Translations under genes and position numbers: made by a program
Part shown: in pieces, positions 21,622-42,213 of the stretch
Position numbering within the stretch: the stretch's first letter is position 1
How the letters are laid out: every line of letters begins with the position of its first letter
DNA from: Pseudomonadota bacterium
GTDB lineage: Bacteria; Pseudomonadota; Gammaproteobacteria; RBG-16-57-12
Direction of reading: 5' to 3'
DNA: 64,000 bases
Assembly (NCBI GenBank): GCA_040752855.1
Contig: JBFMHP010000001.1
Coordinates: 45,037-109,036 of the forward strand
The notes under the pieces: generated by a model
The model's input: only the letters and a program-made list of their open reading frames with translations
What the model was told of the DNA's origin: nothing
Databases searched by the model: none

Positions 21622-21955
21622 GAGAATGCTTTCCCTGTCGGACAAGGCCATCGCGGAGCTGCTCGGCGAGCGGATCAAGGCCCTGCGCCTGCGCCGCAAT
21701 ATCACCCAGGAAGCCCTGGCGCAGGCCACGGCCTTGTCGCTCAACACCATCAAGGCGCTGGAATCGGGCAAGGGCAAGCTCGCCACGGTGATTGCCGTCT
21801 TGCGTGAGCTGGATGCGCTGGACCAGTTGGACAACTTCATCCCGCCGCCCACCATCAGCCCGCTGCAGCTGGCCAAGAGGCAGGGCAAGCAGCGCGCGCG
21901 GGCCAGCGGTTCGCGCGCGCTGCCCGCCTCGGATGAGGATGAAGCGCCGTGGTAA
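21620..21955 (+). CDS. hipB: HipB-like XRE antitoxin
   Basis: HTH_XRE domain (IKALRLRRNITQEALAQATALSLNTIKALESGKG). Overlaps hipA by 7 nt. Confidence 0.8.
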   Translation: MRMLSLSDKAIAELLGERIKALRLRRNITQEALAQATALSLNTIKALESGKGKLATVIAVLRELDALDQLDNFIPPPTISPLQLAKRQGKQRARASGSRALPASDEDEAPW

Positions 21956-23277
21956 AGAAGGTCGATACCGCGCTCGTTTCACTGTGGGGGCACGTCGTCG
22001 GGGCGGTGTCGTGGCTGGAGGAGCGCGGCTACGCCGTGTTCGAATACGACAAGGCCTTCTTACAGAAGGGGCTGGATCTCGCGCCGCTGCACATGAGCCT
22101 GGAGCAGGCCCGTCAGGGCGATGGCATCTTCGCCTTTCCGGCGCTCAACAAAATTACCTTCCACGGACTGCCCGGGCTGCTCGCCGATGCCCTGCCGGAT
22201 AAATTCGGCAACAGCATCATCGACGCCTGGCTCGCGCGCCAGGGACGGGATGCGGCGGACTTCAGCCCCGTGGAGCGGCTCTGCTACACCGGCAAGCGCG
22301 CCATGGGCGCCCTGGAATTCGCCCCCGCGACGCTGGACCGCTACGACAGCGCCGTGCCGGTCGAGATCAGCGAACTGGTCGGGCTGGCGCAGCACGTGAT
22401 GCGCGAGCGCAAGGGCCTGGCCACCCACTTGGGCGCTTCCGAGCCGGCCAACGCCGAGGCGATCCTCGACATCCTGCGCGTGGGCACCTCGGCCGGCGGG
22501 GCGCGGCCCAAGGCGGTGATTGCGCTCGATGCAGAGGGCCACGTCCTCTCCGGTCAGACCGAGGCGCCGCCCGGCTACGACTACTGGATACTGAAATTCG
22601 ACGGCGTCACCGATCTGGAGCTGGGTGAGCCGCGCGGCTATGGGCGCATCGAATACGCCTATCATCGCATGGCCCAGGCCGCCGGCATCGAGATGAGCGA
22701 GTGCCGCCTGCTGGAGGAAAACGGCCGCGCGCATTTCATGACCAAACGGTTCGATCGCGTCGCCGGCCGCAAGCTCCACCTGCAATCGCTGTGCGGCATC
22801 GCTCACTACGACTTCAATCAGGCCGGCGCCTACGGTTACGAGCAGGTCTTCACCGTGATGCGCCGCCTGCGCTTAAGCAAGGCCGAGGCGATCCAGCAAT
22901 ACCGGCGCATGCTGTTCAACGTCATCGCGCGCAATCAGGATGATCACACCAAGAACGTCGCCTTCCTGATGGGTCCGGACGGCCGGTGGCGCCTGTCGCC
23001 CGCCTTCGATGTGATCTACTCGCACAACCCCCATGGCAAGTGGACCAACCAGCATCAGATGAGCCTCAACGGCAAACGCGATCACTTCACCCTGGACGAT
23101 CTCATCACGGTGGGCGAATCCATCAGTATCCCCAAACCGCAGGCCCTCATCGATGAAGTGATGAACGCCGTCGCACACTGGCCGGAGTTTGCCGCGCAGG
23201 CGGGTGTTGATAAAGCGCATATCGAGGAGATCGCACGCCATCACCGGCTGGGGATTAAAAAGGCCGCCGCGCATTGA
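21949..23277 (+). CDS. hipA: HipA-family serine/threonine kinase toxin
   Basis: 442 aa. Blocks GTSAGGARPK, KRFDR and DDHTKNVAFLM match the E. coli HipA nucleotide-binding and catalytic regions. Confidence 0.9.
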   Translation: MVKKVDTALVSLWGHVVGAVSWLEERGYAVFEYDKAFLQKGLDLAPLHMSLEQARQGDGIFAFPALNKITFHGLPGLLADALPDKFGNSIIDAWLARQGRDAADFSPVERLCYTGKRAMGALEFAPATLDRYDSAVPVEISELVGLAQHVMRERKGLATHLGASEPANAEAILDILRVGTSAGGARPKAVIALDAEGHVLSGQTEAPPGYDYWILKFDGVTDLELGEPRGYGRIEYAYHRMAQAAGIEMSECRLLEENGRAHFMTKRFDRVAGRKLHLQSLCGIAHYDFNQAGAYGYEQVFTVMRRLRLSKAEAIQQYRRMLFNVIARNQDDHTKNVAFLMGPDGRWRLSPAFDVIYSHNPHGKWTNQHQMSLNGKRDHFTLDDLITVGESISIPKPQALIDEVMNAVAHWPEFAAQAGVDKAHIEEIARHHRLGIKKAAAH

Positions 23278-23429: not shown

Positions 23430-25319
23430 TTGGACATGCCCCGAAATACATCTCGCGACAATACCGATGAAATCCTGCGGCTCACCATGGAAGGCACCTC
23501 GGCCGTGGTGGGCGAGGCCTTCTTTCGGTCACTGGTGCGCCATCTGGCCGAGGCGCTGCAGGTGCGCTACGCCTTCATCTCGGAGTTCACCCAATTAAAA
23601 TCTCGAGTGCGCATACTCGCCTTCTGGCCGGATGACAAGGCACCCGACGGTTTCGAATATGACCTCGAGCACACCCCCTGCGAGCAGGTGCTGGGCGGTG
23701 AGATGCGCTTTTACCCTAGCGGCGTGCAGCAGCTCTTTCCCGAAGAAGTAGGACTGGTCGAGCTGGGCGTGGAATCCTATCTCGCCATTCCCTTGACCAA
23801 TGCCGCAGGCGAGGTCTTGGGACATCTCGCCATGATGAACGACCGCGCGATGGAGAACCATCCGCGCGACATGTCGGTGTTCAAGATCTTCGGCGCGCGC
23901 GCGGCCGCTGAATTGGAACGAAAGTGGACCGACGACGCCCTGCAGGCGAGTGAGCAGCGCCTCGCCGCCATCCTCGACTCGGCCATGGATGCCATCATCA
24001 CCATGGACGAAACCCGGCGCATCACCCTGTTCAACAACGCCGCCGAGCGGGTATTCGGTTGTGCCGCCGCCTGGGCGCTGGGTCAGCCGTTCGATCGCTT
24101 CCTATCCAAACCTTTCCGCCGCATGCTCGATGAGTATTTCACCTCGCCCAAGGATCAGGTGTGGGCGCCGGAGGGACTCACCGCGCTGCGCGCCAACGGC
24201 GAGGAATTCCAGATCGAGGCAACGCTCTCGCCCGTGCAGGTGCGCGGGGAGAGGCTCTACACCGTGATCCTGCGCGACATCAATGATCGCCGCCGCGCCG
24301 AAGAGGAACTCAACCGCCTCAAGCTGGAAAGACACTATCTGCGCGAGCAGGCCTTTGGCCGCGACGACTTCCAGAACATCCTGGGCCGGTGTCCAGCGAT
24401 GCAGAAGGTGTTCGCTGACATCCGCGAGGTGGCGCCCACCAACGCCACCGTGTTGCTCAACGGGGAAACCGGCACGGGCAAGGAGTTGATCGCCCGCGCC
24501 ATCCACGACTTGAGCCCGCGCCACGACAAGATCCTAGTCAAGATGAACTGCGCGGCCTTACCCAGCGAGCTGATTGAAAGCGAACTGCTCGGCCACGAAA
24601 AGGGCGCGTTTACCGGCGCGACCGCCCAGCGCAAAGGACGCTTCGAACTGGCCGACGGCGGCACCTTGTTTCTCGATGAGGTGGGCGAACTCTCGCTCCC
24701 CGCCCAAGCCAAGTTGCTGCGTGTATTGGAGGAGCACGAATTCGAACGTGTCGGCGGCGCCCGCACCATCCGCGTCGACGTGCGCGTGATCGCCGCGACC
24801 AATCGCAACCTGGAAGACATGGTGCGCGAAGGCAGCTTCCGCGCCGATCTCTACTACCGTCTGCATATCTTTCCCGTGCGCGTGCCGCCGCTGCGCGAGC
24901 GCAAGGCGGATATCCCCCTCCTGACCGAGCACTTCCTCGCCGGATTCGGCCGGCAACTGGCCAAGCCGCTCGGTGAGATGTCGCGCCGCTCCATGGAGCG
25001 GTTGATGATGTACGACTGGCCGGGCAACGTGCGCGAACTGCGCAATGTGCTCGAACGCGCCGCCATCCTCGCCAAGGGTCCGATCATCGACGTGGATGAT
25101 CTGATCGTCGCAAATCACCTGCCCCAGCCGCACGAATTCACTGCCACGACACTCGCGGAGGTGGAGCGCGCGCATATCAAACAGGTGTTAGAGCGCGCGC
25201 ACTGGGTCATCGAGGGTAACCAAGGCGCCGCGGTGATGTTAGGAATGAATCCCAGCACCTTGCGTTTTCGCATTCAAAAACTCGGCATCAAACGCCCGCA
25301 ATCCGAACCCGCCGCTTGA
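23430..25319 (+). CDS. Sigma-54-dependent transcriptional activator (GAF + PAS + AAA+ sigma-54 interaction + Fis-type HTH)
   Basis: Has GETGTGKE Walker A, the GAFTGA motif (EKGAFTGATAQRKG) and a C-terminal HTH. The N-terminus has GAF/PAS-like sensory regions. Confidence 0.9.
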   Translation: MDMPRNTSRDNTDEILRLTMEGTSAVVGEAFFRSLVRHLAEALQVRYAFISEFTQLKSRVRILAFWPDDKAPDGFEYDLEHTPCEQVLGGEMRFYPSGVQQLFPEEVGLVELGVESYLAIPLTNAAGEVLGHLAMMNDRAMENHPRDMSVFKIFGARAAAELERKWTDDALQASEQRLAAILDSAMDAIITMDETRRITLFNNAAERVFGCAAAWALGQPFDRFLSKPFRRMLDEYFTSPKDQVWAPEGLTALRANGEEFQIEATLSPVQVRGERLYTVILRDINDRRRAEEELNRLKLERHYLREQAFGRDDFQNILGRCPAMQKVFADIREVAPTNATVLLNGETGTGKELIARAIHDLSPRHDKILVKMNCAALPSELIESELLGHEKGAFTGATAQRKGRFELADGGTLFLDEVGELSLPAQAKLLRVLEEHEFERVGGARTIRVDVRVIAATNRNLEDMVREGSFRADLYYRLHIFPVRVPPLRERKADIPLLTEHFLAGFGRQLAKPLGEMSRRSMERLMMYDWPGNVRELRNVLERAAILAKGPIIDVDDLIVANHLPQPHEFTATTLAEVERAHIKQVLERAHWVIEGNQGAAVMLGMNPSTLRFRIQKLGIKRPQSEPAA

Positions 25320-25650
25320 GCACAGATCCTTCGTGGGATGCGGTTTAGGCTACATGCGTTGCACGGAACACAGGCGCGACTAGCGCGCAGATTAACTTGT
25401 GGTAGACGCGATTTCATCTTACTGACAGTGTCATATGGTCCCGCACTTCGGTGGACCGCTATCGACCTTAACCGCCATCTGTAAGGGTGGTTTTGAGGAG
25501 TGGTATGATCCAAAAAGCAGTCATTCCTCTAAATTTCTCAGATGCCAGCTAGAGGCGTTGTCCTACGGGATCGGTTTCCAAAAGGTAGGTGTGTCCGCAC
25601 GCTAAGAAAAAGTACGTTTTTAATATTGACTTAACTTAACTCAAGCAAGG

Positions 25651-26478
25651 CTAGGTTAGTTCTAAACTTTTTTGCCACAGCATATCAGCTAATTCTGCGT
25701 CATAAGACATTGGCGATGATTTTTCCACACGCATTTGATTGAAATATCTCCCAGATACGCCTTGAACATCTTGGGAAGTACTCAGGTATATTTGAGCTTT
25801 CGCACCGTTCTCAGGGCTTATTCGGCCCATTGGGAAAGTCCCATTTGAACTTCTATCCTCAATGCTAAATTTAGTTTTGATCACGCCTGGGTGTAGTGCA
25901 TTGATGGTTGTATCGTAGCCTTTTAAATCGCTTGCTAATTTGTATGTAAACAGAATATTGGCAAGTTTAGAGTCACAATAAGCTTTGAAACCATGATAGT
26001 TCTGTTCGTGCATGAGGTTATTTGGATCAATATTGCCGTGTGCATGAAGATCAGATGCAACCACAATGGTGCGAGATGCGGGCGTATCTTTTAACATGTC
26101 TATCAACAGGGTTGTGGTTAGAAAATACCCCAAATGATTCACCGCAAATGTCAGCTCAATGCCTGCGGCTGTTTCTACTCTTTTTTTGCTCATTAGCCCG
26201 GCATTGTTCACCAGAACATCTAGACGGTCATGTTTTCTCCTAAATTTTTCCGAAAACTCGATAATAGAAGCTTGTGAAGAAAAATCGCACATCAGCAAGT
26301 CGACATTATCATTTTTTGAATACTCTATAACTTCTCCAAGTGCTGCTTTTCCTCGCTCTTCGTCCCTTGCGACCACAACAGTGGTTCCGCCCATTTTTGC
26401 TAGCTCTTTTGCTGTTACTAATCCAATTCCGGATGTGCTTCCTGTAACTACACAAACTTTTCCTTTGACGTTATTCAT
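25651..26478 (-). CDS. SDR-family oxidoreductase (retinol-dehydrogenase-like), low-GC island
   Basis: TGSTSGIG Rossmann motif, NNAG motif and YxxxK motif (YCDSK). Confidence 0.85.
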   Translation of the reverse strand: MNNVKGKVCVVTGSTSGIGLVTAKELAKMGGTTVVVARDEERGKAALGEVIEYSKNDNVDLLMCDFSSQASIIEFSEKFRRKHDRLDVLVNNAGLMSKKRVETAAGIELTFAVNHLGYFLTTTLLIDMLKDTPASRTIVVASDLHAHGNIDPNNLMHEQNYHGFKAYCDSKLANILFTYKLASDLKGYDTTINALHPGVIKTKFSIEDRSSNGTFPMGRISPENGAKAQIYLSTSQDVQGVSGRYFNQMRVEKSSPMSYDAELADMLWQKSLELT

Positions 26479-26717
26479 GCGCGTATCCTTTAGTGCGTAT
26501 TAATTAACCTCAGCCATAGCGTCCCTGGTGACTCATATTATTTAGGTTGCTACCGGGAGTTCTGACTTTTATCGTTTGGTTAATTTAATAATTAACAGTG
26601 TTAGAAATCTGGTTTTAACCCAGTTTTTGAAGGAGGTAGAGCTGCGAGCAAGTACGAGTGAACAAAACTCTGCTGTATTTACTTTACTCGCGCTCATAAA
26701 ACTAAGGCCTTGACCCT

Positions 26718-27692
26718 TTAGTTGCAGCCGTGAGACTTGGGGAGGAATTCATTTTGAGGATCAATCAACGCCGTTCCTGATGTTGGCCAGGCCATTTGAT
26801 TGCCGCCATAAACGCCGGTCGGAGCCTTCGCCCAGGTTGCTGCCGCTGAACCGCCATATGCACCATTATCCCAGTTATAGAAAGCGGAAACATAGCTTGA
26901 GCAAGAGCTGGCACCAGCTTTACAAGCGCGAGTTAAGTCATACTTAAGCTTAATGCGTGCAAAGCCACAACCATGCTCATCGGTAACGATAATGTTAGGA
27001 AGGCCGCCAAGAGGGACAGCATACCCAGTTTCGTCGCTGGTCAATGGATTGAGCGTGCCAATGTCCCACATGGTGTAAACAGCATTCGGAAAGGCGTCTC
27101 GAATAGTGACTAGTACGTCAAACAAGCCGTTTTTGTCTTCCTTAACGCTTAGCTTACCGGAGATTTTCTCCCAGTCCCCCACCGTTGGGTTGATTGCGAA
27201 GCCTTGTTTACGATAAATAGACGGCTCTGCACCGGATTCATTAAAGGACACTGGCGTCAGTCGTTTATCTAGGCCGGTAAATCCTGGACCGAGGAAGTTG
27301 CTGCCTACTTCACCTAGAGGGATATTTACTGTGTCTAGGTCAATATAGCCACCAGGATTAAAGTAATCAAAAAAGGCGCGAGTAGTAGCAACTGGAAGGT
27401 TGCGATCTGTATAGGAAAAAATAGTACCTGAGTAATAAGAACCTTCCTGGTATACACCAATTTCATTAACCGGTGGGTAAGCATTTAGATACGGAACGGC
27501 CGGCGAAACGCCTGAGTAGTCCACTACGGCTTTTCCGTTATAATTATTGATGCCATGGACGACATAGCCTGAAATATCAACACTCTTTTGAGCGCCTGAT
27601 GAGCGCTTATCACTTGCCAAAGCATAGCTGCCAACGCCAGATGACAAAGCCAGAAAAAGTGAAGCTTTAGCGATATTTTTAATTATAGTCAT
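26718..27692 (-). CDS. Hypothetical secreted protein, low-GC island
   Basis: 324 aa with signal peptide. No recognisable family. Confidence 0.5.
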   Translation of the reverse strand: MTIIKNIAKASLFLALSSGVGSYALASDKRSSGAQKSVDISGYVVHGINNYNGKAVVDYSGVSPAVPYLNAYPPVNEIGVYQEGSYYSGTIFSYTDRNLPVATTRAFFDYFNPGGYIDLDTVNIPLGEVGSNFLGPGFTGLDKRLTPVSFNESGAEPSIYRKQGFAINPTVGDWEKISGKLSVKEDKNGLFDVLVTIRDAFPNAVYTMWDIGTLNPLTSDETGYAVPLGGLPNIIVTDEHGCGFARIKLKYDLTRACKAGASSCSSYVSAFYNWDNGAYGGSAAATWAKAPTGVYGGNQMAWPTSGTALIDPQNEFLPKSHGCN

Positions 27693-27759
27693 TGATATGT
27701 CCTTATTTAAAAATGATTCATGTGAAAAATTTGTACATTGTCTTCAAGTCCAACGACCG

Positions 27760-29634
27760 CTAGGCGATAGTTAACTCAGTATCCATTTGATTTGTAATGG
27801 TCGATGTTCTAGGTAGGAGCTCGAGTCTCGCTGAATGTTTGATACTTTTAATTCTGTCGATTGTCTGTTGAAGACTTTGCTCACTTCCATAATATTCAAA
27901 GAATTGTTGCCTAGCGCCATGCTCATAAATGAAAGGTCGGGTTTTTTGGCCATAACCAAATTCGACAATTGCATCAGTACTAGCTGGAATTAATTCATCG
28001 ATGGACTGGAATGATTGTGCCGAATACATAGGAATATTGGCCATATCCAGAATTAAATTTCGCACCTCATCTTTTGATGAGGCGATACCAGTACCATTAT
28101 TTGCCACAATCGGGATATCTGGCTCTAAAAATAAGATGTTTTCATCGACTATAAAGTTACTAATGTCGATTCTTGCTGCTGCAAGCTTTGGCGAGTGTAC
28201 GATTTCAATCGTTGGGCGCTTAAACTCTTTAACATTAATCGTATTTTTAAATGATTTGTTAATAAAAGCCATAACTTCATTGAAAATGCTATGATGTATA
28301 TATACATGGACTTCTTGCTTTTCCAAAGTAAGCGTTTGCCAACGGAAAACATCAATCCGTTCAGGGAACATACGCTGAATGTCTTTCAAATCGTGAATAA
28401 TCGAGCGTCCATCCAGGCTGACTATATGCCAAGTTCCAACGCTATTTGCATGTGCATATTTGTAAATACTACCCAAGGTGTAATTGGCAACTTTGATCCC
28501 GTCTTCCAGAGATAATGCATTGCTAGCAATAGCAGCTGCTATCATGCCATAACTTTCTCCACCGACACTATTAATTAAGAAATCACTGGATGAAGTTTTT
28601 AAGTGCTCAAACAGGGCAAGATTATACACTGTCATGGATGAGCCAATGTTATTCCATTTTTTGGCGACATCGTCATTCGATAACTCTTCTTCGAAGAAGA
28701 ATCGCGATACGTAATCGGTTCCTTGTTCCTGATTATGCTGACTTAATATTTCAGCTGAATCTTCGAATACTGAGCGTACTTTATTATTTCCTTTTTCGTA
28801 TAGATCTCTGGAAATATTGGTGTAAGAACGACGGCTGTTCATTCCAGGAAAATAGGCATGTAATGCAATTTTTTTTGTTTCTGGTATCCAGATAGGGTGA
28901 GTATTTAAATCAAGGCGATTTTTTTGAATGGCTATGTTTCTATCAATCACTGATGGGCTAATATTTTTACCTCGTTGACTCAAAGACAAATCAATCAATG
29001 CATGATATAATGTGGTAAAGCTTTCATCTGATTTATCCCAGTTTTCAACATGGTTTTCTATTAATCGCTTAACTAATGACTTGTCGTTGTTACTATCATG
29101 CTCTAACAGACGCTCAACCATTCCCATTTGGCTCAATGCTGTCAAGGTATAAGCAATTCTCATAAAACCAGACCGGTAAAACAAATTGGTCGGTTTATGT
29201 CCATTTTCGAAATCGTAAGTTGTTGATATATTTTCAATAAGCTTGTCAGCGAGCGAATCAGGTAAGGCATTCACAAGATTTAGTTTATGAGAAATATCCA
29301 CGCAGTACGTGTATGCCATATAATCTAATTCACTTTCATCAGCGCTAATTAACTTGTCAATGATGCTGAGCAGATACTCCTGGGTATTTTGGGTGAATCT
29401 ATGGGTTAGCCCTAAATTATCCAGAGTAGATAAACAATAGTGACTAAAAATTGCTTTCAAATTGATCGGTAACGTGTCGATAAGCTCGCCAGAGACTTTA
29501 ACCCAGTCTCGTTTGTATTCGAGGTACTTAAGCTCATCAAGAACGCCAATGCAGTTAACCATTAATAATATCGAGAAAACATATTCGTTGGGACGCTGCT
29601 CAACTCTTGCTCGATCTTCCAAGCTTGCATCCAT
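27760..29634 (-). CDS. Large protein with C-terminal FabD-like (malonyl-CoA:ACP transacylase-type) GxSxG acyltransferase domain. Likely the 3' part of a gene interrupted by an in-frame TGA.
   Basis: The SVGGESYGMIAAAIASNALSLEDGIKV block parallels the FabD GHSLGEYSALVAAGALSFEDALKLV block. It is in the same reading frame as the upstream 29755-30327 ORF. Confidence 0.55.
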   Translation of the reverse strand: MDASLEDRARVEQRPNEYVFSILLMVNCIGVLDELKYLEYKRDWVKVSGELIDTLPINLKAIFSHYCLSTLDNLGLTHRFTQNTQEYLLSIIDKLISADESELDYMAYTYCVDISHKLNLVNALPDSLADKLIENISTTYDFENGHKPTNLFYRSGFMRIAYTLTALSQMGMVERLLEHDSNNDKSLVKRLIENHVENWDKSDESFTTLYHALIDLSLSQRGKNISPSVIDRNIAIQKNRLDLNTHPIWIPETKKIALHAYFPGMNSRRSYTNISRDLYEKGNNKVRSVFEDSAEILSQHNQEQGTDYVSRFFFEEELSNDDVAKKWNNIGSSMTVYNLALFEHLKTSSSDFLINSVGGESYGMIAAAIASNALSLEDGIKVANYTLGSIYKYAHANSVGTWHIVSLDGRSIIHDLKDIQRMFPERIDVFRWQTLTLEKQEVHVYIHHSIFNEVMAFINKSFKNTINVKEFKRPTIEIVHSPKLAAARIDISNFIVDENILFLEPDIPIVANNGTGIASSKDEVRNLILDMANIPMYSAQSFQSIDELIPASTDAIVEFGYGQKTRPFIYEHGARQQFFEYYGSEQSLQQTIDRIKSIKHSARLELLPRTSTITNQMDTELTIA

Positions 29635-29754
29635 ATAAGATACAAGAGCGTTTAGCCGATGGTTTTCTGGTTTGGTGGCGTAATCTGATAAGCCAATTAT
29701 GCCCAGAACGGTTAAGAAGGCTGCGATTCCTCTTCCTTTGTGCCAAACGTCTTC

Positions 29755-30327
29755 TCAGCCTGTAGCTACGTTGAAGGCCTGATCAACGTAGTCGATATTG
29801 CCTTTGGTTAGTTTGTCTACCAAACCAATATGAGCAATGCCTAAGAATAGATTTCCGTAGGCCTGAAGCGCGATGTAGCATTCCTTTTCGTTTGAGGTAG
29901 GCAAGCACCCAAGCTGATTTAGCGCATCGTCAACTAGATCAATTTCCTTATTCATCCACAAGTGAGGGTCTAAGCCTAGCTTTCCGAAAGATTCAAATAA
30001 AACTGAACTTGCTGAAACGTACAAATTCGGATTATCTATTTTCTTTAATGATTCAATGATCGTTTCGATTCTTGGGTGTAATTCTTTTCGCTGGAAAAAT
30101 AGTATTTCTGGGTTATTGAAATCCAATATAAAATCACATAATTCCTTAAAGAACTGATTGTATGGATTTGATGTTACGATTGATTCGTCTAATACCCCGA
30201 ATATTTCCTTTATATAGTTGGATTCGATGGGGTCAAAGTTTTTTGTGTTTGCGCCAAGTCCCCGCCCTTTAACTAAAGTAGTCCATGGACCCTGCAAAGC
30301 TCTAGATTCATTTGTAATATTCAACAT
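29755..30327 (-). CDS. N-terminal segment (190 aa) in frame with the downstream acyltransferase-domain ORF. Separated from it by a single TGA at 29755-29757.
   Basis: Same frame as 27760-29634. The 40 codons after the stop read as protein-like (EDVWHKGRGIAAFLTVLGIIGLSDYATKPENHRLNALVSY-M...). Confidence 0.45.
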   Translation of the reverse strand: MLNITNESRALQGPWTTLVKGRGLGANTKNFDPIESNYIKEIFGVLDESIVTSNPYNQFFKELCDFILDFNNPEILFFQRKELHPRIETIIESLKKIDNPNLYVSASSVLFESFGKLGLDPHLWMNKEIDLVDDALNQLGCLPTSNEKECYIALQAYGNLFLGIAHIGLVDKLTKGNIDYVDQAFNVATG

Positions 30328-30331
30328 GATT

Positions 30332-31747
30332 TTAAGCCGCCTGCCTAGAGTCTGAAAACGGAACTGAAACGCCGTAGAATGTTAATGTTTTCCCTTCTAA
30401 CATTCTCAGTGCTAGGTTTAACCACTTTATTCCTTCTGCATAAATTGCCACTGGTCGGCGTTGATGCGTGTAACTGTCAACCATTATTCCGTCTTCATTT
30501 TTGTGAAAGTGAAATGGCGGCATTGCTGTAAAGTGTGTTCCCATTACAAATGCAAATCGAATTATCCAATTCGGATCATTCTTATTCATATCTGATTTGG
30601 GATTATCTAAGTCCCAGGCGTCATACATCACTGATTTGAAATGGCTTTCAATTCCCTCATATGATAATGAGTAGGAGTGATTGTCATGAGGGATAACTTC
30701 AATACTCATTCCGTCATGATTTTTATTTATCTTTAGGTCAAATAGTTCACTATGAATAACGTCATACTGGCCTAAAGAGTTATGCCATGGTTTATTGTCA
30801 TACATAGGATCATCAGACCCTGAATCTTCTCCATTTTCATGGAACCCAATTGCCCTTGGATCTAAAAATTTGATTCCAATGTCTTCAGCAGTAAAGCTAT
30901 AGTCTTTGGCTTTGATGAATCCAAGTAATGCATCCGGATTGGAAATTTTAATGTTTTCAGTATTGGTATCACCCATTACTAGGGTGTGGCGCAGTGGCTC
31001 CAGAATTTGCAAGTAATTCGGGTTACTTCTAAATTTCCTTAGTAGCGCCTTGATATTAAGTAGCTTAATGCCATCAATATAGATATTCTCCGTATTCAAT
31101 AGAGAATCTGAAAATACGCTTGATGAGGTTTCTCTAGATAACTCTAAACGCTTTTCTATTTTACGGAAATATGACTGCTCTAATGTTGGTCCAGAAGGTT
31201 TTCGGACTCGATTGCTGTGAATAATGCCATTTAGTGTGCGGTATATGACGACGTATATCCGAGCAACCGCTTCAACAGGAGGCTTGTGCTTGCGAATAAA
31301 CTCGCTGACCTCATCACCACCAATAAATGACATCTCGTAAATTAGCTCGTTTACTAATTCAGGTGTTCCGTCATTTGTTGCGGAAGCTCCGTTAGTTGAT
31401 TTTGGTACTTTTCTCTCAATTATACTGTCGACATATGGGAAGTACGGTTTTACAGTTTCAGGTAGGTTTTTAAGGTAGTGCGCCTGCTGTTTTGCCTTTT
31501 TGTAAGGAGCTAGCATTACATCTGTGCCGTCCCTATCCCATTTTGCGGTGATCAAATTTTCACTTAATATTTTCCGAACGATAGCAGCTGAATTGCCCGG
31601 TTTCTTTAAGAAAATTGTTAAGGACTCACTTCCGCCAATACCAAACCCTACGATTTTCTCTCCTGGGTTCATGTATTGACTGATAACGTCATCGTTCATT
31701 GGGATGTCTTTCTTGACGCCCGTATCGCTTGGTATTTCATTTTCCAT
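30332..31747 (-). CDS. Protein-kinase-like fold phosphotransferase (APH/ChoK-like), low-GC island
   Basis: Has a Gly-rich loop (GFGIGGSES), a Lys block (AAIVRKIL), a catalytic-loop-like LVMGDTNTENIKI and FLDPRA (D-x-G-like). 471 aa. Confidence 0.5.
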   Translation of the reverse strand: MENEIPSDTGVKKDIPMNDDVISQYMNPGEKIVGFGIGGSESLTIFLKKPGNSAAIVRKILSENLITAKWDRDGTDVMLAPYKKAKQQAHYLKNLPETVKPYFPYVDSIIERKVPKSTNGASATNDGTPELVNELIYEMSFIGGDEVSEFIRKHKPPVEAVARIYVVIYRTLNGIIHSNRVRKPSGPTLEQSYFRKIEKRLELSRETSSSVFSDSLLNTENIYIDGIKLLNIKALLRKFRSNPNYLQILEPLRHTLVMGDTNTENIKISNPDALLGFIKAKDYSFTAEDIGIKFLDPRAIGFHENGEDSGSDDPMYDNKPWHNSLGQYDVIHSELFDLKINKNHDGMSIEVIPHDNHSYSLSYEGIESHFKSVMYDAWDLDNPKSDMNKNDPNWIIRFAFVMGTHFTAMPPFHFHKNEDGIMVDSYTHQRRPVAIYAEGIKWLNLALRMLEGKTLTFYGVSVPFSDSRQAA

Positions 31748-31953
31748 GCTGCACCTCCTTGTGGTTTATCGAGTATTTTTATGCCTTTAAAGACTTATTG
31801 TTTATGCTGTTGAGTTAATTGTTTTTTTATTGCTTTTTTGCTAGCGAAGAGGCTTACTCCTCGGCTATATTCTTTGGGTTTGCTCGCCGCTATAAAGATT
31901 AACCCGACGATGCTGTGCGCGGGCTAACCCTGAAGCGTCGATTGTTATTCTTC

Positions 31954-32913
31954 TTAAATTTCAATAACAATCTTTCCTCGGGTGTGGCCTGACTCGCTCT
32001 TCTCGTGGGCTTTGGCGATATCGTCTAGGCGGAAAACGCTGTCAACTTCAACGGTAATATCTCCAGAGTCAATTAGCTCAGAAATTTCCGATAATTGGTC
32101 TGAGTTGGCTTGAACAAAGCAAAAGTTAGCGCTTACTTCATGCTTGGCTGCAAGCTCTTTGTTTGGAATTTCTGCGATTGAAATCAGGCAACCACCTCTC
32201 TTTAAAGTTGCCCAGGATTTTTCTAAGACTTCGCCACCCATGGTGTCGAATACGATGTCGAAATCTGCCAATTTAGAGAAATCTTGCTGGGTGTAGTCGA
32301 CTACTTCATCGGCACCTAGACCCTTCAAAAACTCAATATTTCGACTAGATGCGGTGGTGTAAACGGTAGCGCCTGCTTGTTTGGCAAGCTGGATTGCTGC
32401 AATGCCTACGCCACCAGCTCCAGCATGAATCAGGACACGATCGCCTTGTTTCATATGGCCGATATCGTTCAAGGCTTGCCATGCTGTTAGTGTGACTAGC
32501 GGTACAGCTGCTGATTTTTGCCAGCTTAGTGTTTTAGGTTTGGCCGCGATTTTATCTGCCGATACAGTGATGTACTCAGCATACGCGCCATTTTTTGAAA
32601 GGTCCGAGTGAGCGTACACGGCATCGCCAACACGCCATTTTTCGACATTCTTACCAACAGCGGCAACTTCGCCCGCAAAATCCCAGCCTAAAGTTAGAGG
32701 AAGTGCATGAGGAATAATTTCAACCAAGTAACCTTCGCGAATTTTCCAATCGACAGGATTTACTCCCGCAGCATGAACTTTGATCAAAACCTCACTTTCA
32801 GCTGGTTTTGGTATCGCAACGCTTTCCAATTTCATTTGTTCTGCGCCTCCGTAGTTGTGAATTCGTACGGCTCTCATTTGGCCTTCATTCATAGTGTTCA
32901 TTGCATTCTCCAT
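31954..32913 (-). CDS. Zn-dependent/MDR-family NADPH:quinone oxidoreductase
   Basis: MRAVRIHNYGG...LIKVHAAGVNPVDWKIREG plus a GAGGVG NAD(P)-binding motif. The true start is probably the internal Met (MRAV, about 32877). Confidence 0.85.
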   Translation of the reverse strand: MENAMNTMNEGQMRAVRIHNYGGAEQMKLESVAIPKPAESEVLIKVHAAGVNPVDWKIREGYLVEIIPHALPLTLGWDFAGEVAAVGKNVEKWRVGDAVYAHSDLSKNGAYAEYITVSADKIAAKPKTLSWQKSAAVPLVTLTAWQALNDIGHMKQGDRVLIHAGAGGVGIAAIQLAKQAGATVYTTASSRNIEFLKGLGADEVVDYTQQDFSKLADFDIVFDTMGGEVLEKSWATLKRGGCLISIAEIPNKELAAKHEVSANFCFVQANSDQLSEISELIDSGDITVEVDSVFRLDDIAKAHEKSESGHTRGKIVIEI

Positions 32914-33009
32914 TTACGCCGTAACTGGCGACTTGATTAATTTATCCAACTAAAAGCGCGTGCTTTATTTACATCGTGGGAGAAGTTTAAACAGGAAAAT
33001 GCCGCTTGA

Positions 33010-33023
33010 TTAGACATCTCTAA
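33010..33023. promoter_or_regulatory. Candidate LysR box (TTAGA-N4-TCTAA dyad) in the divergent QOR/LysR intergenic region
   Basis: An imperfect T-N11-A-type dyad about 85 bp upstream of the LysR start. Confidence 0.3.
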
Positions 33024-33105
33024 CGCACTAGACTGTTTCCATATACTCAACAATGGACGTTTGTGTGCCTCTCTATTTCGTTACACAGTAGGTGTTTGGT
33101 TATCA

Positions 33106-34023
33106 ATGAACAGCAAACGATTAGATAGTTTGCCGACTTTGGTTCTGTTTGCGCGCATTGTTCAATATGGCAGTTTGAGTGCGGCAGCACATCACTCTGG
33201 CTTGAGTCGTTCTGCTGTGAGTAAGCAATTGTGTGCACTAGAAGAAAAACTCGGCATTCGCTTGCTGCAGCGCAGTACTCGCAGTGTTAAGTTGACTGAG
33301 GCTGGAAAGCAGGTTTTGGGCGAGGCTATGCTGGTACAGGAAGCTTTTAATAGGGTTGAAACCTTATCGGAAGAGCTGCAAGGCCAAGTACGTGGCCACC
33401 TAAAAGTTTCTTGTTCAGCAGGTATTGGTCGTGTTCACTTAGTGCCTTTGGTCAAACAATTCCGTGCACTCTATCCGAAAGTACATGTGCAATTATTACT
33501 GGAGGATAGATTTGTTGATTTAATCGATGAGCAAATCGATGTGGCAATTCGTGTCGGCCATCTTCCTGACTCCTCGTTAATAGCATTGCGACTTGGAGAA
33601 ATGACCTGGGTGGTTTGCGCAAGTCCAGAGTACTTAAGTAAAAACGGTACCCCAAAAACCCCAACAGACCTACTTCAACATGATTGTCTTCACTATCGAA
33701 ATAGTCAAAGTGCTTTTGACAATTGGTTGTTTATGGGGCCAAATGGCGAGGAGAGAATTTCAATTAATGGCTCCCTCTCAATTAATGATTCAACAGCTTT
33801 AGTTCAGGCAGCTGAAGATGGTCAAGGAATTGTTTGGATTGATAAAAATTCAGTCGGTGATGCGTTTGAAACCGGTCGCCTTGTTCAGGTTTTGCAAGAC
33901 TACTCCCTGGGGATTGGCTACCCTATTTATGCGTTATATCCAGCGCGACACCATCTTCCTGCAAAGACGCGAAAATTTGTTGATTTTTTAACCGAACATT
34001 TCTCACCAAGTATACAGCGTTAA
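33106..34023 (+). CDS. LysR-family transcriptional regulator
   Basis: N-terminal HTH (LPTLVLFARIVQYGSLSAAAHHSGLSRSAVSKQL) and LysR substrate-binding domain. Divergent from the quinone oxidoreductase. The ORF begins at 33061 but the conserved start is MNSKRLDSL. Confidence 0.85.
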   Translation: MNSKRLDSLPTLVLFARIVQYGSLSAAAHHSGLSRSAVSKQLCALEEKLGIRLLQRSTRSVKLTEAGKQVLGEAMLVQEAFNRVETLSEELQGQVRGHLKVSCSAGIGRVHLVPLVKQFRALYPKVHVQLLLEDRFVDLIDEQIDVAIRVGHLPDSSLIALRLGEMTWVVCASPEYLSKNGTPKTPTDLLQHDCLHYRNSQSAFDNWLFMGPNGEERISINGSLSINDSTALVQAAEDGQGIVWIDKNSVGDAFETGRLVQVLQDYSLGIGYPIYALYPARHHLPAKTRKFVDFLTEHFSPSIQR

Positions 34024-34309
34024 ATAGGAAATATATTTTCTTTAATATCAATTGGCTGCAATGGAATAGTTGAACATAATAAGAAAATCGACGCAAGAAA
34101 GTGGGATGGCAGGTGAAATGGTTACCCCATGAGATCCTCGTTTGTATTACTAATCAATGGCGGCTCTGTCTATTTGGGAGACCTTCCTGGAGTTACATTC
34201 TGATGTCCGCTTTTGAGGAGGTTCAAGAGTACTTGGTTTTTTCGATAACGGCGGCTATCAGGATAAACCTGCCATCTTAATGGGATGGCCAACTGACTGT
34301 TTATTAGTC

Positions 34310-35010
34310 GAGAACAGCCTTCCGCAGCTTGATTAATATGGGCACTGTTTGTTAGATGAAGTCACGACAGCCATCGTCTTAACTCCTTAAGCATTCACCC
34401 AATCCGTAATCCTTTGCGACATCCGCAACATGTCGCGGCGTTGAGCGTTGCCTCAACGCCCCCTCACGCATCGAGCAGCCTGCCAATCCTTTGAAACAAA
34501 TAACGATATTCGCATTTCTCCATAATTGGCACGGAGAATGCGAAGGCTCAGATACGCCGTGAATGTTCGAGTTTTAACAGCGGGCACAACAAATCGCCCC
34601 GATTTGTTGTTCGACACGAAGAGTATCGCCATGAGACACGCGTTGACCATGACCACCCTATTACAGGAAAACCAAATCTTCTGTGGTACCGGAGGAGTAA
34701 GCACCGCCAATCGCGCATACCGCTTTGTGCCGGCATTCCAGGATACCGCCACTGGCCGAAACTACGTTTCACGATTCGCCGACGGACGCGCCGCACCCTG
34801 TCATCTGCTGGAGGGGTTGCCGGATGAGTTGGTGGTTGAGCGTTCCGAACGGGGCGCTGTTACTAGAATCAAGGATTCAGTCGTCTCGGGCTTTCTTCGT
34901 GGAGGGCGTTTCTATACACGCGCGGAGGCGGCCCAGATCGTGGCCATCTAGCCTGGATTTCTTTGCGTCCTGCAATCGGTTCTATCGCTCAAAGCAAAAT
35001 TCAGAATTTT
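34310..35010 (+). repeat. Copy 1 of the segmental duplication. Contains the full small gene X and its downstream region.
   Basis: 34310-34380 matches 39132-39200, and 34826-35010 matches 39205-39395 (about 85% identity). Copy 2 lacks about 440 bp in between. Confidence 0.75.
34631..34951 (+). CDS. Hypothetical small protein 'gene X' (106 aa; an alternative start at 34526 gives 141 aa)
   Basis: ORF with an RBS-like GAAGAG upstream. Its 3' 40 codons are duplicated at 39205-39324 with mostly conservative substitutions. Confidence 0.4.
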   Translation: MRHALTMTTLLQENQIFCGTGGVSTANRAYRFVPAFQDTATGRNYVSRFADGRAAPCHLLEGLPDELVVERSERGAVTRIKDSVVSGFLRGGRFYTRAEAAQIVAI

Positions 35011-35169
35011 TGTTCCTATTGAATACTATCGCCGCTTCATAACACCGCTTCGACCCAACCTTCTTTCGCACAATACGCTCGGTAAGATCAACGGATGCTG
35101 AACTTCAATGGCTCTTCTGCAAATACCTCGCTTGCATTGGAGTATACCAGCCGCAACCCGCTGTGGTCT

Positions 35170-35187
35170 GCCACAAATACTTGTGGC
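35170..35187. promoter_or_regulatory. Perfect palindrome GCCACAA-atac-TTGTGGC (candidate enhancer/UAS site)
   Basis: Conserved as GGCCACAA-atgc-TTGTGGCC at 40845-40864. About 105 bp upstream of the -24 element in both copies. Confidence 0.5.
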
Positions 35188-35275
35188 CTGACCGACCGCA
35201 GTCGTCACTCCAAGATCTGCTCACGAGACACATATCCTGCTGATCTGAAATCCATTTATTGCGCAGAACGCATGT

Positions 35276-35290
35276 TGGCGCAGCGCTTGC
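35276..35290 (+). promoter_or_regulatory. Sigma-54 (RpoN) -24/-12 promoter TGGCGC-N5-TTGC
   Basis: GG and GC are 12 nt apart. The consensus is TGGCAC-N5-TTGCW. About 80 nt upstream of the CCP-like start. Confidence 0.6.
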
Positions 35291-35383
35291 CATGCGGTAC
35301 ACGTGCACAAACTCTTCGACTGAAGACAGCGGCACGAAGTTAAGTCTCAACTCACTACTTCAATTCAACTAAGGAGATTGATC

Positions 35384-39459: not shown

Positions 39460-40689
39460 TTACCGCCACAGCGCGCTCACCGGCAGCGCAACATACTGGT
39501 CGCCAAACGGTATCACCTGATCACCGCCATAGAGCACCACGCCTCGGATAAATTTATCGCCCGCAGCCTGCGCCAGGGTTTCGAGGCCGGTGAGGTCTTT
39601 GCGGGTAAGCGATGCGGTGGCCTTGACCTCGACGCCGACTACGCGGCCGCGGGCGTCTTCGATGACCACATCGACTTCCCGGCCGGTGGTGGAACGGAAA
39701 TGGTAGAGCGATACGCGCTCTTGGGCCCAGCTCGCTTGTTTGCGCAGCTCGGCGACGACAAAGGATTCCAGCAGATGTCCCAGCAGTGTTGCGTCCTCGG
39801 CTAGGCGCTGAGAGGTCTGGCCTGTGAGATAGGCGGCCAGCCCGCTGTCGATGAGGTGGATCTTGGGTGATTTAACGAGCCGCTTGCCCAGGTTGGTAGA
39901 CCATGCCGGCAGCGGTTGGAACAGGAAGGTCATCTCTAGCAGGCTCAAGTAGCGCTTGAGAGTGGTGTGGGCGATGGCGGAGGCGCGCGACAGCTCGGAC
40001 ATGTTGAGCAACCCACCGGAACGCGCAGCGAGCAGGGCCAGGAGGCGTGGCATGTCGGTGAGTCCTTCGATGTGCGCCAGATCGCGGACGTCGCGTTGGA
40101 GGATGGCGGTGATGTAGGCGCCGAACCAAGCCTGGCGTCGGCCTGTATCTTCACGGGCGACGGCTTCCGGGTAGCCGCCGCCAATGATTTGGCTGAGGAT
40201 ATCAATACCGGTCTTTTCCGTATTCGAAAAATCGGGCAACCGCGGAGCAAAAACCGTATCGATGAACCGCTCAACGCGATCAGCAAGCTCTCCCTGGGAC
40301 AGGGGCCACAAGGGTATAGCCTCCATGCGGCCCGCCAGCGACTCGGACAATTGCGGCAGTAGCAGCACATTGGCCGAGCCAGTGAGCAGGAATCGCCCCG
40401 GGCGCCGGTCGGCATCCACTAGTATCTTGATGGCTGGAAACAGCCCCGGCGCCTTCTGCACTTCATCCACCACCACCATGCCCGGCAGGTTACGCAGGAA
40501 GCCATGCGGATCACCCACCGCGGCCGCCAGAGTCGTAGCGTCATCAAGTGTCACGTAGCGCCCCGCTCTCTGAGCGGCGATTTCTTGGGCCAGGGTGCTT
40601 TTGCCGGTCTGGCGGGCACCGTTGAGCAACACCACGGGGGTATCGCGGAGCACGGATTGGAGGTAAGGTTCGATATTTCGCCTGAACAT
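39460..40689 (-). CDS. AAA+ ATPase of the AAA_14/DUF4143 family (paralog of 15003-16454)
   Basis: Walker A LLNGARQTGKST. Same family architecture. Located as a 1.4-kb insertion inside duplication copy 2. Confidence 0.75.
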   Translation of the reverse strand: MFRRNIEPYLQSVLRDTPVVLLNGARQTGKSTLAQEIAAQRAGRYVTLDDATTLAAAVGDPHGFLRNLPGMVVVDEVQKAPGLFPAIKILVDADRRPGRFLLTGSANVLLLPQLSESLAGRMEAIPLWPLSQGELADRVERFIDTVFAPRLPDFSNTEKTGIDILSQIIGGGYPEAVAREDTGRRQAWFGAYITAILQRDVRDLAHIEGLTDMPRLLALLAARSGGLLNMSELSRASAIAHTTLKRYLSLLEMTFLFQPLPAWSTNLGKRLVKSPKIHLIDSGLAAYLTGQTSQRLAEDATLLGHLLESFVVAELRKQASWAQERVSLYHFRSTTGREVDVVIEDARGRVVGVEVKATASLTRKDLTGLETLAQAAGDKFIRGVVLYGGDQVIPFGDQYVALPVSALWR

Positions 40690-41071: not shown

Positions 41072-41329
41072 ACAGTCGTCACCTCAGCATTGGCCACCGT
41101 CGTAGTTCTGGGCATCGTGGCCACGGCCTCGGCGCAACCGGCCGCGAAACCGAAGTATGACTTCGAAAAGTGCTATGGCGTGGTAAAGGCTGGCAAGAAC
41201 GATTGCCAGACGGCCAACAGCTCCTGCGCCGGGACCTCGAAGATGGACGCCAACCCGACCGCCTGGATCTATGTGCCCAAGGGGACGTGCGATCGCATCG
41301 TCGGTGCCAGCACCCAACCCAAGGCATGA
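41060..41329 (+). CDS. bufA: DUF2282-type secreted Cys-containing precursor peptide (bufferin BufA-like)
   Basis: 89 aa. Has a Sec signal peptide (MRTKTVVTSALATVVVLGIVATASA). The mature region carries 4 Cys (EKCYG, NDCQT, SSCAG, GTCDR). Immediately precedes the DUF692 gene. Confidence 0.75.
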   Translation: MRTKTVVTSALATVVVLGIVATASAQPAAKPKYDFEKCYGVVKAGKNDCQTANSSCAGTSKMDANPTAWIYVPKGTCDRIVGASTQPKA

Positions 41330-42213
41330 GGATGCAGAGCATGATTCCTTCCGCGAACAATCATTTCGCAGTGGGACCGATTCCGGCGCAAGCCGGAATC
41401 GGATTGCGGGCCGAGCACTATCATGAGGTGGTGGAGACCAAGCCCGCGATCGCCTGGTTCGAGGCGCACAGCGAGAACTACTTCGGTGCCGGCGGCCGTC
41501 CACTGTATTTTCTGGAGCGCGTCCGCGCCGATTATCCGGTGAGTCTGCACGGTGTGGGACTCTCATTGGGCTCCGCCGATGCACTGAACCTGCGCCATCT
41601 CGAGAAGCTGCGGGACTTGATTCAGCGCATCGAGCCCGGGCTGGTTTCCGAGCATCTCTCGTGGGGCTCGGTGGGCGGGCGCTATCTCAACGATCTGCTG
41701 CCGCTGCCCTATACCGATGAGACCTTGCGCCATCTGATCGAGCGCGTGCAACAGGTGCAGGAGTTTCTCGGGCGGCAGATCCTCATCGAGAACATTTCCT
41801 GCTATCTGGAATATGAAGACACCACGCTCGCCGAGCCGCAATTTCTCGCGGAGCTGGCGCGGCGCAGCGGCTGCGCGCTGCTGCTTGATGTCAACAACGT
41901 GTATGTCAACGCCGTCAATCACCGCTTCGATCCCTTTGGCTATGTGGCGGCGATCCCCGCGGATCTGGTGCAGGAGATCCATCTCGCTGGCCACACCCGC
42001 CGGCAGCTTGAAGACGGCGCGATCCTCATCGACACGCACGATCAGCTCGTCACCCCTGCGGTGTGGGAACTCTATCGCGCCGCGGTCGCGCGCCTGGGCC
42101 GCATCCCGACCTTGATCGAATGGGACAGCGATCTACCCGCGCTGGAGGTATTGCTCGCCGAGGCGGCGCACGCCGAGCAGGTGATGGAGGTGGGCTATGC
42201 CGACGTTGCATGA
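41326..42213 (+). CDS. bufB: DUF692 / MNIO (multinuclear non-haem iron-dependent oxidative) enzyme, BufB/MbnB/TglH-like
   Basis: TIM-barrel xylose-isomerase-like pattern (GIGLRAEHY, FEAHSENYF, LHGVGLSLGS, HLSWGS, IENIS, IHLAGH). ATGA start/stop overlap with bufA. Confidence 0.85.
   Translation: MRMQSMIPSANNHFAVGPIPAQAGIGLRAEHYHEVVETKPAIAWFEAHSENYFGAGGRPLYFLERVRADYPVSLHGVGLSLGSADALNLRHLEKLRDLIQRIEPGLVSEHLSWGSVGGRYLNDLLPLPYTDETLRHLIERVQQVQEFLGRQILIENISCYLEYEDTTLAEPQFLAELARRSGCALLLDVNNVYVNAVNHRFDPFGYVAAIPADLVQEIHLAGHTRRQLEDGAILIDTHDQLVTPAVWELYRAAVARLGRIPTLIEWDSDLPALEVLLAEAAHAEQVMEVGYADVA

Follow-up and report, generated by a model that had tools for sequence, protein, structure and literature searches.

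A horizontally acquired low-GC block in a gammaproteobacterial genome encodes a kinase of the APH/choline-kinase fold and a toroid-acyltransferase partner

Phosphotransferases of the APH/choline-kinase fold are known from several enzymes and structures (3csv, Rv3168/3att, LicA/4r77, APH(2''), amicoumacin kinase, NahK), as are FabD/MCAT, polyketide synthase (PKS) acyltransferase and acyl-hydrolase domains (2h1y, 6smd and PksD, 8avz). Kinases are also found in combination with other functions, either in sugar-kinase fusions (maltokinase-trehalose synthase, 5jy7, and kinase-nucleotidyltransferase proteins) or in the kinase-plus-partner dehydratases of class III-V lanthipeptides (LanKC/LanL; LxmK-LxmY, 9dk1) and thioamitides (TvaC-E), and regulators of the LysR type control quinone- or electrophile-reductase operons (YafC- and AaeR-type). 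Here we describe a block of six genes, low in guanine and cytosine (GC), that resembles each of these systems in part. It occupies positions 25639-34175 of a 64,000-nt stretch (hereafter the window) of contig JBFMHP010000001.1, from the gammaproteobacterial assembly GCA_040752855.1. Our favoured explanation, which we hold tentatively, is that the block is a mobile operon controlled by a LysR-type regulator, in which a quinone oxidoreductase (QOR), a kinase, a toroid-acyltransferase protein, a secreted protein and a short-chain dehydrogenase/reductase (SDR) modify a small molecule around an uncharacterised kinase-toroid-acyltransferase enzyme.

The kinase gene (30332-31747, minus strand) encodes a protein of 471 residues from an unnamed family, here called 'kin', whose assignment as an APH/choline-kinase-fold phosphotransferase rests on its fold and conserved motifs. 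An earlier annotation of this DNA (the sequence-only reading) had described the protein as APH/ChoK-like, with a glycine loop, a conserved lysine and a catalytic-loop-like motif; these motifs are real, being conserved in 62 homologues, and the structural matches support the fold, which is bilobal and protein-kinase-like. Specifically, G36, G38, G39, S40, K59, G259-D260, N265, P297 and R298 are invariant in the 62 homologues and D296 is present in at least 90%, so that the catalytic-loop Asp/Asn, the beta3 Lys and the metal Asp can all be placed, at positions assigned by motif and strand order rather than by superposition. Similarity to the known APH/ChoK kinases, the structural matches of this protein, is nevertheless remote: identity is 9-13% in the ten best structural matches and 7-17% over the whole list, the protein has about 170 extra residues including an invariant DDPMYDNKPWHNS block, and it is encoded with, or fused to, a toroid protein. 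No Pfam family (including PF01636, APH) or NCBIfam family was matched at E values up to 0.1, there was no PADLOC match, and a profile search of the PDB gave nothing relevant. Homologues number more than 195, none of them named, and identity remains about 50% even in Actinoplanes, Anabaena, Polyangia and Sulfuriflexus. An exhaustive profile search of 1.84 billion proteins yielded 56 cluster representatives at E<1e-30, and a scan of 185,579 species genomes yielded 127 confirmed matches. The closest out-group kinases are APH domains fused to sugar-1-phosphate nucleotidyltransferase-like or RmlD-like domains, an architecture that recalls the sugar-kinase fusions. However, these out-groups are only remotely related (E 1e-29 to 1e-9, partial coverage) and no glycoside-hydrolase or lyase catalytic signature was identified in the toroid; a sugar substrate for the kinase is only a lead.

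The next gene (27760-30327, minus strand) starts 4 nt past the kinase stop and spans 855 codons with one in-frame stop. Searches of its product against Pfam, NCBIfam, PADLOC and PDB sequences gave no significant match, only weak acyltransferase hints (0.0099-0.05), and the protein divides into two modules. The N-terminal module, residues 1 to about 470 (28918-30327, minus strand), is a closed alpha/alpha toroid in which P14, W15, G25, Y151, R199, Y341 and Y393 are invariant among 61 sequences; left uncharacterised by the sequence-only reading, it is the most constant partner of the kinase. The C-terminal module, residues from about 485 to 835 (27823-28875, minus strand), is assigned by fold and by a Ser-His dyad as a FabD/MCAT-fold acyl-transferase or hydrolase domain, with an alpha/beta core and a ferredoxin-like small subdomain. 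Here 61 sequences from several phyla share FPG..S498, G590-E-S592-x-G594, D609, K703, T706, H711 and N743 without exception, and both S592 at the elbow and H711 are 100% conserved. The block GESYG...SLEDG, on which the C-terminus had been called FabD-like, is the nucleophile elbow of this fold. In contrast to the GHSxG of FabD, the elbow reads GESxG, its His replaced by Glu, and the malonyl-carboxylate Arg is not conserved in the family: at the position equivalent to FabD Arg117 (Ser+25), located by hand count and not by structural superposition, the window protein has Thr and the family consensus Phe or Thr, which makes malonyl unlikely as the acyl group. The module also differs from described acyltransferases in falling under the Pfam and NCBIfam thresholds (best 0.0099, mdcH), in being fused to a toroid or a kinase, and in that no acyl carrier protein (ACP), ketosynthase, or fatty acid synthase or PKS genes were seen nearby. 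Since no ACP was found and the Arg that would bind malonyl is absent, the automatic label 'ACP S-malonyltransferase' on some members probably misleads.

To describe how these modules are combined, 84 non-redundant loci from five or more phyla were scanned by script, and the kinase lay beside the toroid module in about 80 of them. An acyltransferase-kinase fusion accompanied by a toroid was the commonest arrangement (44 of 84 loci), followed by kinase and toroid only (21, mostly cyanobacteria) and by three separate genes (11). All modules were joined in one open reading frame (ORF) of about 3,100-3,200 residues, with two or three tandem toroids, in three loci from Omnitrophota. The window type, a kinase with a toroid-acyltransferase fusion, was represented by one locus (Psychromonas); in two loci an acyltransferase-kinase fusion was found on a contig that ends with no toroid seen, and two had the kinase only. 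Stand-alone proteins of 471-502 residues encoded directly after the kinase gene in Anabaena, locus L007, Sulfuriflexus, Actinacidiphila and Polyangia are homologues of the toroid, and in Actinacidiphila the FabD-fold module lies inside a 1042-residue protein encoded upstream of the kinase. Altogether the modules are fused in four different orders, and this variety argues strongly that they work as one system. The core of that system is not the four-gene set of kinase, large protein, secreted protein and SDR proposed by the sequence-only reading, but the kinase and the toroid module, to which the acyltransferase module may or may not be added.

Further modules are present in some relatives. The actinomycete and Omnitrophota versions have an extra module that resembles a degenerate acyltransferase; the idea that this module, between acyltransferase and kinase, corresponds to the 324-residue secreted protein of the window was rejected for want of any similarity. 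Giant relatives fuse the kinase to a HAD phosphatase and a second APH domain, to an ARMT1-like damage-control phosphatase, or to a KDPG-aldolase-like domain whose match is under the Pfam cut-off. Proteins of 3,100-4,800 residues from Omnitrophota and metagenomes (L009 4976-14662, L019 5243-14632, P0208, P0219 and P0223) comprise a signal-like N-terminus, about 900 unknown residues, an acyltransferase, a degenerate acyltransferase-like module, a kinase and two or three toroids, and some of them have phosphatase or aldolase-like domains as well. Stop-to-stop ORF clustering gave spurious antisense families in high-GC actinomycete loci, and only Pfam-confirmed families were used. A full-text literature search for this combination of domains found nothing relevant.

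The block that carries these genes in the window is a horizontally acquired accessory element, as indicated by its composition and by the occurrence of the same block in unrelated contexts. GC in 500-nt segments is 0.35-0.50 over about 25.3-34.4 kb, compared with 0.57-0.64 before 25.3 kb and 0.63-0.66 again by 35.5 kb, and the flanks overall are 55-69% GC. Similarly, GC at third codon positions is 0.36-0.43 in seven reading frames of the block and 0.75-0.84 in the flanking genes for a sigma-54 activator, a HipA-like protein and a haem peroxidase. A stretch of about 40% GC in a 65% background had been reported previously; the low-GC part is borne out, whereas the background figure is slightly high, the rest of the window being patchy (0.50-0.70). 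Two other loci contain the window's six genes (LysR divergent from QOR, kinase, a protein of 852-855 residues, a 324-residue protein and SDR). One, L090 (a contig of GCA_964425285.1), is 91-94% identical in nucleotide sequence to window positions 25639-34175, and the other, L088 (a metagenome scaffold), is 87% identical to 25647-34024. Their flanks have nothing in common with the window or with one another: the L088 copy lies beside TnsB/TniB/TniQ-type (Tn7-like) transposition genes in low-GC DNA, and the L090 copy lies between AlpA and Peptidase_S24 genes with a flank GC of 0.56-0.63. The locus thus shows both features expected of a genomic island, foreign composition and the same block in differing contexts.

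More distant copies are partial. A contig from ERR4592246 has QOR, kinase, 834-residue, 326-residue and SDR genes behind an AhpC gene, with 74% identity in the kinase, so that the four genes singled out by the sequence-only reading recur together in L088, L090 and this contig. A Psychromonas metagenome-assembled genome has only LysR, QOR, kinase and an 850-residue protein, with 79% identity in the kinase and about 71% in the large protein; the secreted protein and SDR, which are absent there, were found only with window-type (metagenome) cassettes. The LysR and QOR genes belong to the same conserved mobile unit as the kinase operon, because both recur with the kinase genes in L090, L088 and Psychromonas, and QOR also in ERR4592246. 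They had been regarded as a divergent pair next to the operon; QOR is in fact co-directional with it, LysR alone is divergent, and both lie within the conserved block. Over longer distances, the enterobacterium Dryocola sp. BD626 (L087) has an actinomycete-type acyltransferase-kinase fusion with a toroid (46% kinase identity) and Streptomyces sp. NBC_00388 has a copy on a plasmid (L052); this architecture and this location point to transfer between phyla.

The borders of the block in the window yielded few landmarks. An ORF check confirmed all four gene coordinates given earlier, and the intergenic gaps from the kinase gene through the large gene and the secreted-protein gene to the SDR gene are 4, 67 and 239 nt. 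Mobile-element scars or tRNA attachment sites had been anticipated at the island borders; none appeared when tRNAs, flanking repeats and integrases were checked. A tRNA scan of the window borders detected none, direct and inverted flanking repeats there were short and at chance level, Rfam gave no match at the borders, and the border ORFs at 34.0-35.4 kb had no Pfam match and corresponded to no recognisable gene. Promoter- and terminator-like sites found by scanning were at or below chance level. Between the end of L090 homology and the next host gene is a segment of about 1.2 kb (34176-35377, GC 0.44-0.54) with short ORFs only and no Pfam match; it may be left over from the element on which the block arrived. 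The 239-nt spacer between the secreted-protein and SDR genes (26479-26717) is well conserved in the window, L090 and L088, includes an invariant AT-rich stretch ACACTGTTAATTATTAAATTA, and may be an internal promoter or operator.

The accessory genes of the block are of more familiar types. The LysR-type regulator (33106-34023, plus strand; Pfam HTH_1 2.2e-18, LysR_substrate 6.9e-46) probably starts at ATG 33106, giving 305 residues as in L090, rather than at the TTG 33061 that opens the ORF; the start at MNSKRLDSL was placed by alignment of upstream regions. Its best NCBIfam match is YafC-like (8.5e-64), under the model cut-off (215 vs 470 bits). In the spacer that it shares with the divergent QOR gene is a dyad of the T-N11-A type, TCCAT-N10-ATGGA (33038-33057), which occurs once in the window (0.04 expected by chance) and is a candidate LysR operator; this stretch is largely conserved, with mostly invariant columns, in the window, L090, L088 and the 75%-identical Psychromonas locus. 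The QOR, a medium-chain dehydrogenase/reductase encoded by the first gene of the operon (31954-32913, minus strand; ADH_zinc_N_2 4.3e-31, ADH_N 3.1e-21), matches NCBIfam quinone_pig3 at 3.1e-67, under the cut-off, and its gene is immediately upstream of the kinase gene in L001, L088, L090 and the ERR4592246 contig. A divergent LysR gene, a dyad as candidate operator and a leading PIG3-type QOR gene are the features shared with LysR-regulated quinone- or electrophile-reductase operons, although the window regulator falls under the equivalog cut-offs. Kinase and toroid-acyltransferase genes, present in the window operon, are not known from such operons.

At the other end of the block, the last gene (25651-26478, minus strand) encodes an SDR, as had been supposed (adh_short 2.8e-33, KR 1.2e-07), which is full length relative to its counterparts in L090 and L088. 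Preceding it is the gene for the 324-residue protein (26718-27692, minus strand), which indeed appears to be secreted, having a Sec-type N-terminus (MTIIKNIAKASLFLALSSGVGSYALA/SD) when the signal peptide is judged by eye. No Pfam or NCBIfam family matched it, and PADLOC and PDB sequences gave nothing significant; it has 57 relatives, of which those with a named source are from marine gammaproteobacteria, and Sessilibacter corallicola has three paralogues. In Arenicella and Sessilibacter, relatives of the secreted protein occur in another LysR-headed cluster (L091 6076-11290, L092 9-8951), together with DUF1330, an AMP-dependent ligase, an 85-residue ORF, a FabA-like protein and two unknown proteins.

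Gene neighbourhoods of the wider family were read in 12 contexts with precomputed Pfam annotation and in L063, which was scanned separately. The neighbouring regulators are of the LysR, TetR, response-regulator and LuxR types; the neighbouring oxidoreductases include QOR or zinc-dependent alcohol dehydrogenase (Zn-ADH), FMN reductase, SDR/NmrA, luciferase-like monooxygenase, PNPOx, and Fer2 with a Mo-cofactor oxidoreductase; and other neighbours are Amidohydro_2, lactonase, GST/AhpC, and MFS or YdcZ transporters. No ketosynthase, condensation or other non-ribosomal peptide synthetase enzyme, terpene enzyme or recognised carrier protein was present in the 12 annotated contexts, and none of these biosynthetic enzymes was found among the L063 ORFs tested. 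In cyanobacteria, Sulfuriflexus and Polyangia (L004 11211-17485, L007 137-6289, L003 1-8012, L093 3164-8609) one gene set recurs by the kinase-toroid pair, consisting of Fer2 with a Mo-cofactor oxidoreductase, Zn-ADH, YdcZ, Polyketide_cyc2, Amidohydro_2 and XdhC, sometimes with a lactonase or NAD_binding_2 protein, and it looks like a conserved catabolic pathway. Taken together, the neighbours, the fusions to phosphatase and aldolase-like domains and the out-group fusions suggest that a small hydroxylated metabolite is phosphorylated, possibly a sugar- or hydroxy-acid-like one, and do not suggest phosphorylation of a protein or peptide, or defence.

These observations provide the basis for the model that we favour. 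The APH-fold kinase would phosphorylate a hydroxyl of the substrate with ATP, as its fold and conserved catalytic residues suggest. The toroid would bind the kinase or the substrate and would probably act on the phosphorylated intermediate, a role suggested only by its obligate linkage and its fusions. The invariant residues and missing Arg of the FabD-fold domain suggest that its Ser592-His711 dyad would attach or cleave off a non-carboxylated acyl group. QOR and SDR, drawing on NAD(P)H, would carry out reductions at a carbonyl, enone or quinone function of this substrate or its product, and LysR would probably sense that molecule and activate the operon by way of the conserved dyad. This step-by-step chemistry is inference only. 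We also think it possible, if somewhat doubtful, that kinase, toroid and FabD-fold module constitute an undescribed multi-component enzyme with its own chemistry, acting on an undescribed class of metabolite and spread horizontally across Gammaproteobacteria, Cyanobacteria, Actinomycetes, Myxococcota and Omnitrophota. Candidate chemistry would be ATP-driven activation of a hydroxyl, then elimination, substitution or ring chemistry catalysed by the toroid, coupled to acyl transfer; candidate metabolite classes would be an acylated sugar, a hydroxy-acid or a signalling lactone.

The earlier annotation had offered a tailoring or modification cassette or, alternatively, a toxin or defence module. 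Its modification idea is retained here, and its statement that the four genes match no characterised pathway holds; the toxin or defence idea is not retained, given that PADLOC gave no match and that the contexts are of regulators, oxidoreductases and transporters. Several points weigh against our model. The toroid lacks a conserved Cys/His metal site in the 61 sequences, and any catalytic role for it is conjecture. Because QOR, SDR and the secreted protein do not accompany every core, what they do chemically may have no connection with it. The cassette showed neither a carrier protein nor an acyl donor, and the FabD-fold domain may either transfer or hydrolyse. The operon structure is deduced from gene spacing alone, and every source name for family members is 'hypothetical' or automatic. 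One copy, L088, stands among possible defence genes (an S8 peptidase with an AAA ATPase, SocA_Panacea, SNase). Finally, the stop codon in the large gene, considered next, could be a sequencing or assembly error.

This stop is an in-frame TGA at codon 191 (29755-29757, minus strand), which splits the frame into 190 and 624 residues. L090, L088 and L089 have TTA (Leu) at codon 191, the adjacent codons of L090 being the same as in the window, and Psychromonas has Leu at the aligned position. Most of 21 close homologues of the large protein are uninterrupted (827-861 residues), and four shorter ones (519-694 residues) are from short contigs. Either one T-to-G nonsense substitution or an error in base calling accounts for the TGA of the window. 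In this genome the system probably does not work, or has been inactivated only recently; since the rest of the block is intact, any inactivation would be recent. A further explanation, that the block is decaying cargo without function in this host, the stop marking a pseudogene cluster, or else an assembly chimera, would accommodate a TGA where all relatives have TTA, the extremely foreign composition and the 1.2 kb beside the block (34.2-35.4 kb) without a recognisable gene. We consider it distinctly unlikely: there is one disabling change in 8.5 kb and all six reading frames are otherwise intact, the kinase, large and secreted proteins are 84-93% identical to their closest relatives, a chimera would need two false joins since high-GC DNA lies on both sides, and L090 presents a comparable island in a second higher-GC genome. 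Even if function has been lost in this host, moreover, the nature of the system is unchanged.

Among the remaining alternatives, a biosynthetic or tailoring cassette for an exported acylated metabolite or signal, lipid- or sugar-lipid-like, has the most to be said for it, and we judge it unlikely without dismissing it. In such a cassette the acyltransferase would load an acyl chain, SDR and QOR would act like a ketoreductase and an enoyl-reductase, kinase and toroid would replace a dehydratase (phosphorylation, then elimination), and the protein with the signal peptide would handle the product outside the cytoplasm. Consistent with these roles are the SDR match to the KR domain (1.2e-07) and the resemblance of QOR to the PKS enoyl-reductase (3e-34) and crotonyl-CoA reductase (4.5e-33) models, both under cut-offs. 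The kinase also has LxmK and 25-hydroxysteroid kinase among its structural neighbours, and both of those enzymes prepare a hydroxyl for elimination. Relatives of the secreted protein keep the idea alive, because in Arenicella and Sessilibacter they lie near genes for acyl chemistry (the AMP-dependent ligase and FabA-like dehydratase, with the 85-residue ORF); however, that ORF has no PP-binding match. An ORF of the AfsA family (butyrolactone synthases) is within 7 kb in 17 actinomycete loci and is Pfam-confirmed in L063, where a TetR gene and an MFS transporter are also near, and a LuxR-type regulator adjoins the Sulfuriflexus pair; the AfsA linkage is nevertheless confined to actinomycete loci (mostly Streptomyces) and lies on the opposite strand. 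A cluster of the salinipostin type was considered for these Streptomyces loci and rejected, as the Pfam families differ from those of the spt genes, which encode a PEP-utilising enzyme, AMP-ligase, ACP, NDP kinase, UbiA and LLM (PMC8209734). The biosynthetic explanation is weakened by the neighbourhood survey, in which ketosynthase, condensation or terpene enzymes and a recognised carrier protein were lacking, and by the absence of SDR, QOR and the secreted protein from most core loci; a PKS-like version lacks a ketosynthase, a carrier protein and the malonyl-binding Arg. A divergent LysR gene with catabolic-type neighbours (Amidohydro_2, Mo-cofactor oxidoreductase, lactonase) is also encountered more often in degradation or detoxification systems. 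An anti-phage defence or toxin module borne on mobile elements, whose kinase or serine hydrolase would hit a cellular or phage target, is very unlikely. It would suit the patchy, rare and transfer-driven distribution (127 matches in 185,579 species genomes), the plasmid copy L052, the domain shuffling and very large fusion proteins, the L088 copy, which is cargo beside Tn7-like genes and near the SocA_Panacea, SNase and S8-peptidase/AAA genes, and the HipA-like kinase gene that adjoins the window block. Yet a PADLOC search of five proteins at E up to 0.1 found no families; there is no nuclease, NTPase sensor, TIR, Sir2 or pore-type effector; the partners are consistently LysR regulators, oxidoreductases and transporters, and the fusion partners metabolite phosphatases and an aldolase-like domain; and the surroundings of the pair are, in most genomes, those of ordinary chromosomal metabolism. 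Least of all do we expect a system like those for ribosomally synthesised and post-translationally modified peptides (RiPPs), in which the kinase would phosphorylate Ser/Thr of a precursor peptide and the toroid would serve as a LanC-type cyclase or lyase lacking zinc, on the pattern of class III-V lanthipeptide synthetases. The logic of fusing a kinase to a partner resembles LanKC/LanL. In contrast to LanKC/LanL and TvaC-E, no precursor ORF, recognisable lyase domain or Pfam LANC_like match was found in the window system, its toroid lacks zinc ligands, and it has no protease or ABC exporter; the best structural neighbours of the kinase are small-molecule rather than peptide kinases, and the family neighbourhoods are redox and catabolic, not RiPP-like. 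The QOR-kinase spacer (104-206 nt, stops in all frames, four loci) holds no conserved small ORF, and none that could encode a precursor peptide was called in the contexts, leaving out the long spacer upstream of the cyanobacterial kinase genes.

Several other genes of the window lie around the block. A HipA-type toxin kinase gene (21949-23277, plus strand; HipA_C 3.7e-52, Couple_hipA 8.4e-18) is two genes ahead of the island, and between them is the gene for a sigma-54 activator with GAF and PAS domains (23430-25319). Genes for AAA_14/DUF4143 ATPases occupy lower-GC patches, one on each side of the region (15003-16454, plus strand, with an additional weak Mrr-like nuclease match, and 39460-40689, minus strand), and may mark further accessory insertions in a mosaic stretch. 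The ORF at 41170-42213 (plus strand) strongly matches the MbnB/TglH/ChrH family that modifies RiPP precursors (4.9e-107), and a cluster for a peptide natural product may lie there, about 7 kb from the island. The gene at 6416-7693 (minus strand) encodes a PAP2/VCPO_2nd (vanadium-haloperoxidase-like) protein; another adjoins the LysR-kinase-toroid genes of Anabaena (L004 3238-5325, minus strand), perhaps by coincidence.

For annotation, the copy in this genome should be flagged as disrupted, and a gene pair hitherto labelled 'hypothetical' can now be recognised as a kinase and its toroid partner. No Pfam, NCBIfam or PADLOC model, name or literature was found for the family; the fold of each module is familiar, and their obligate combination is undescribed. 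That the family is conserved (about 50% identity between Gammaproteobacteria and Actinomycetes), rare and mobile points to a specific, selectable chemistry, and the identity of the substrate could reveal a new class of metabolite or a new use of phosphorylation in the transformation of small molecules.

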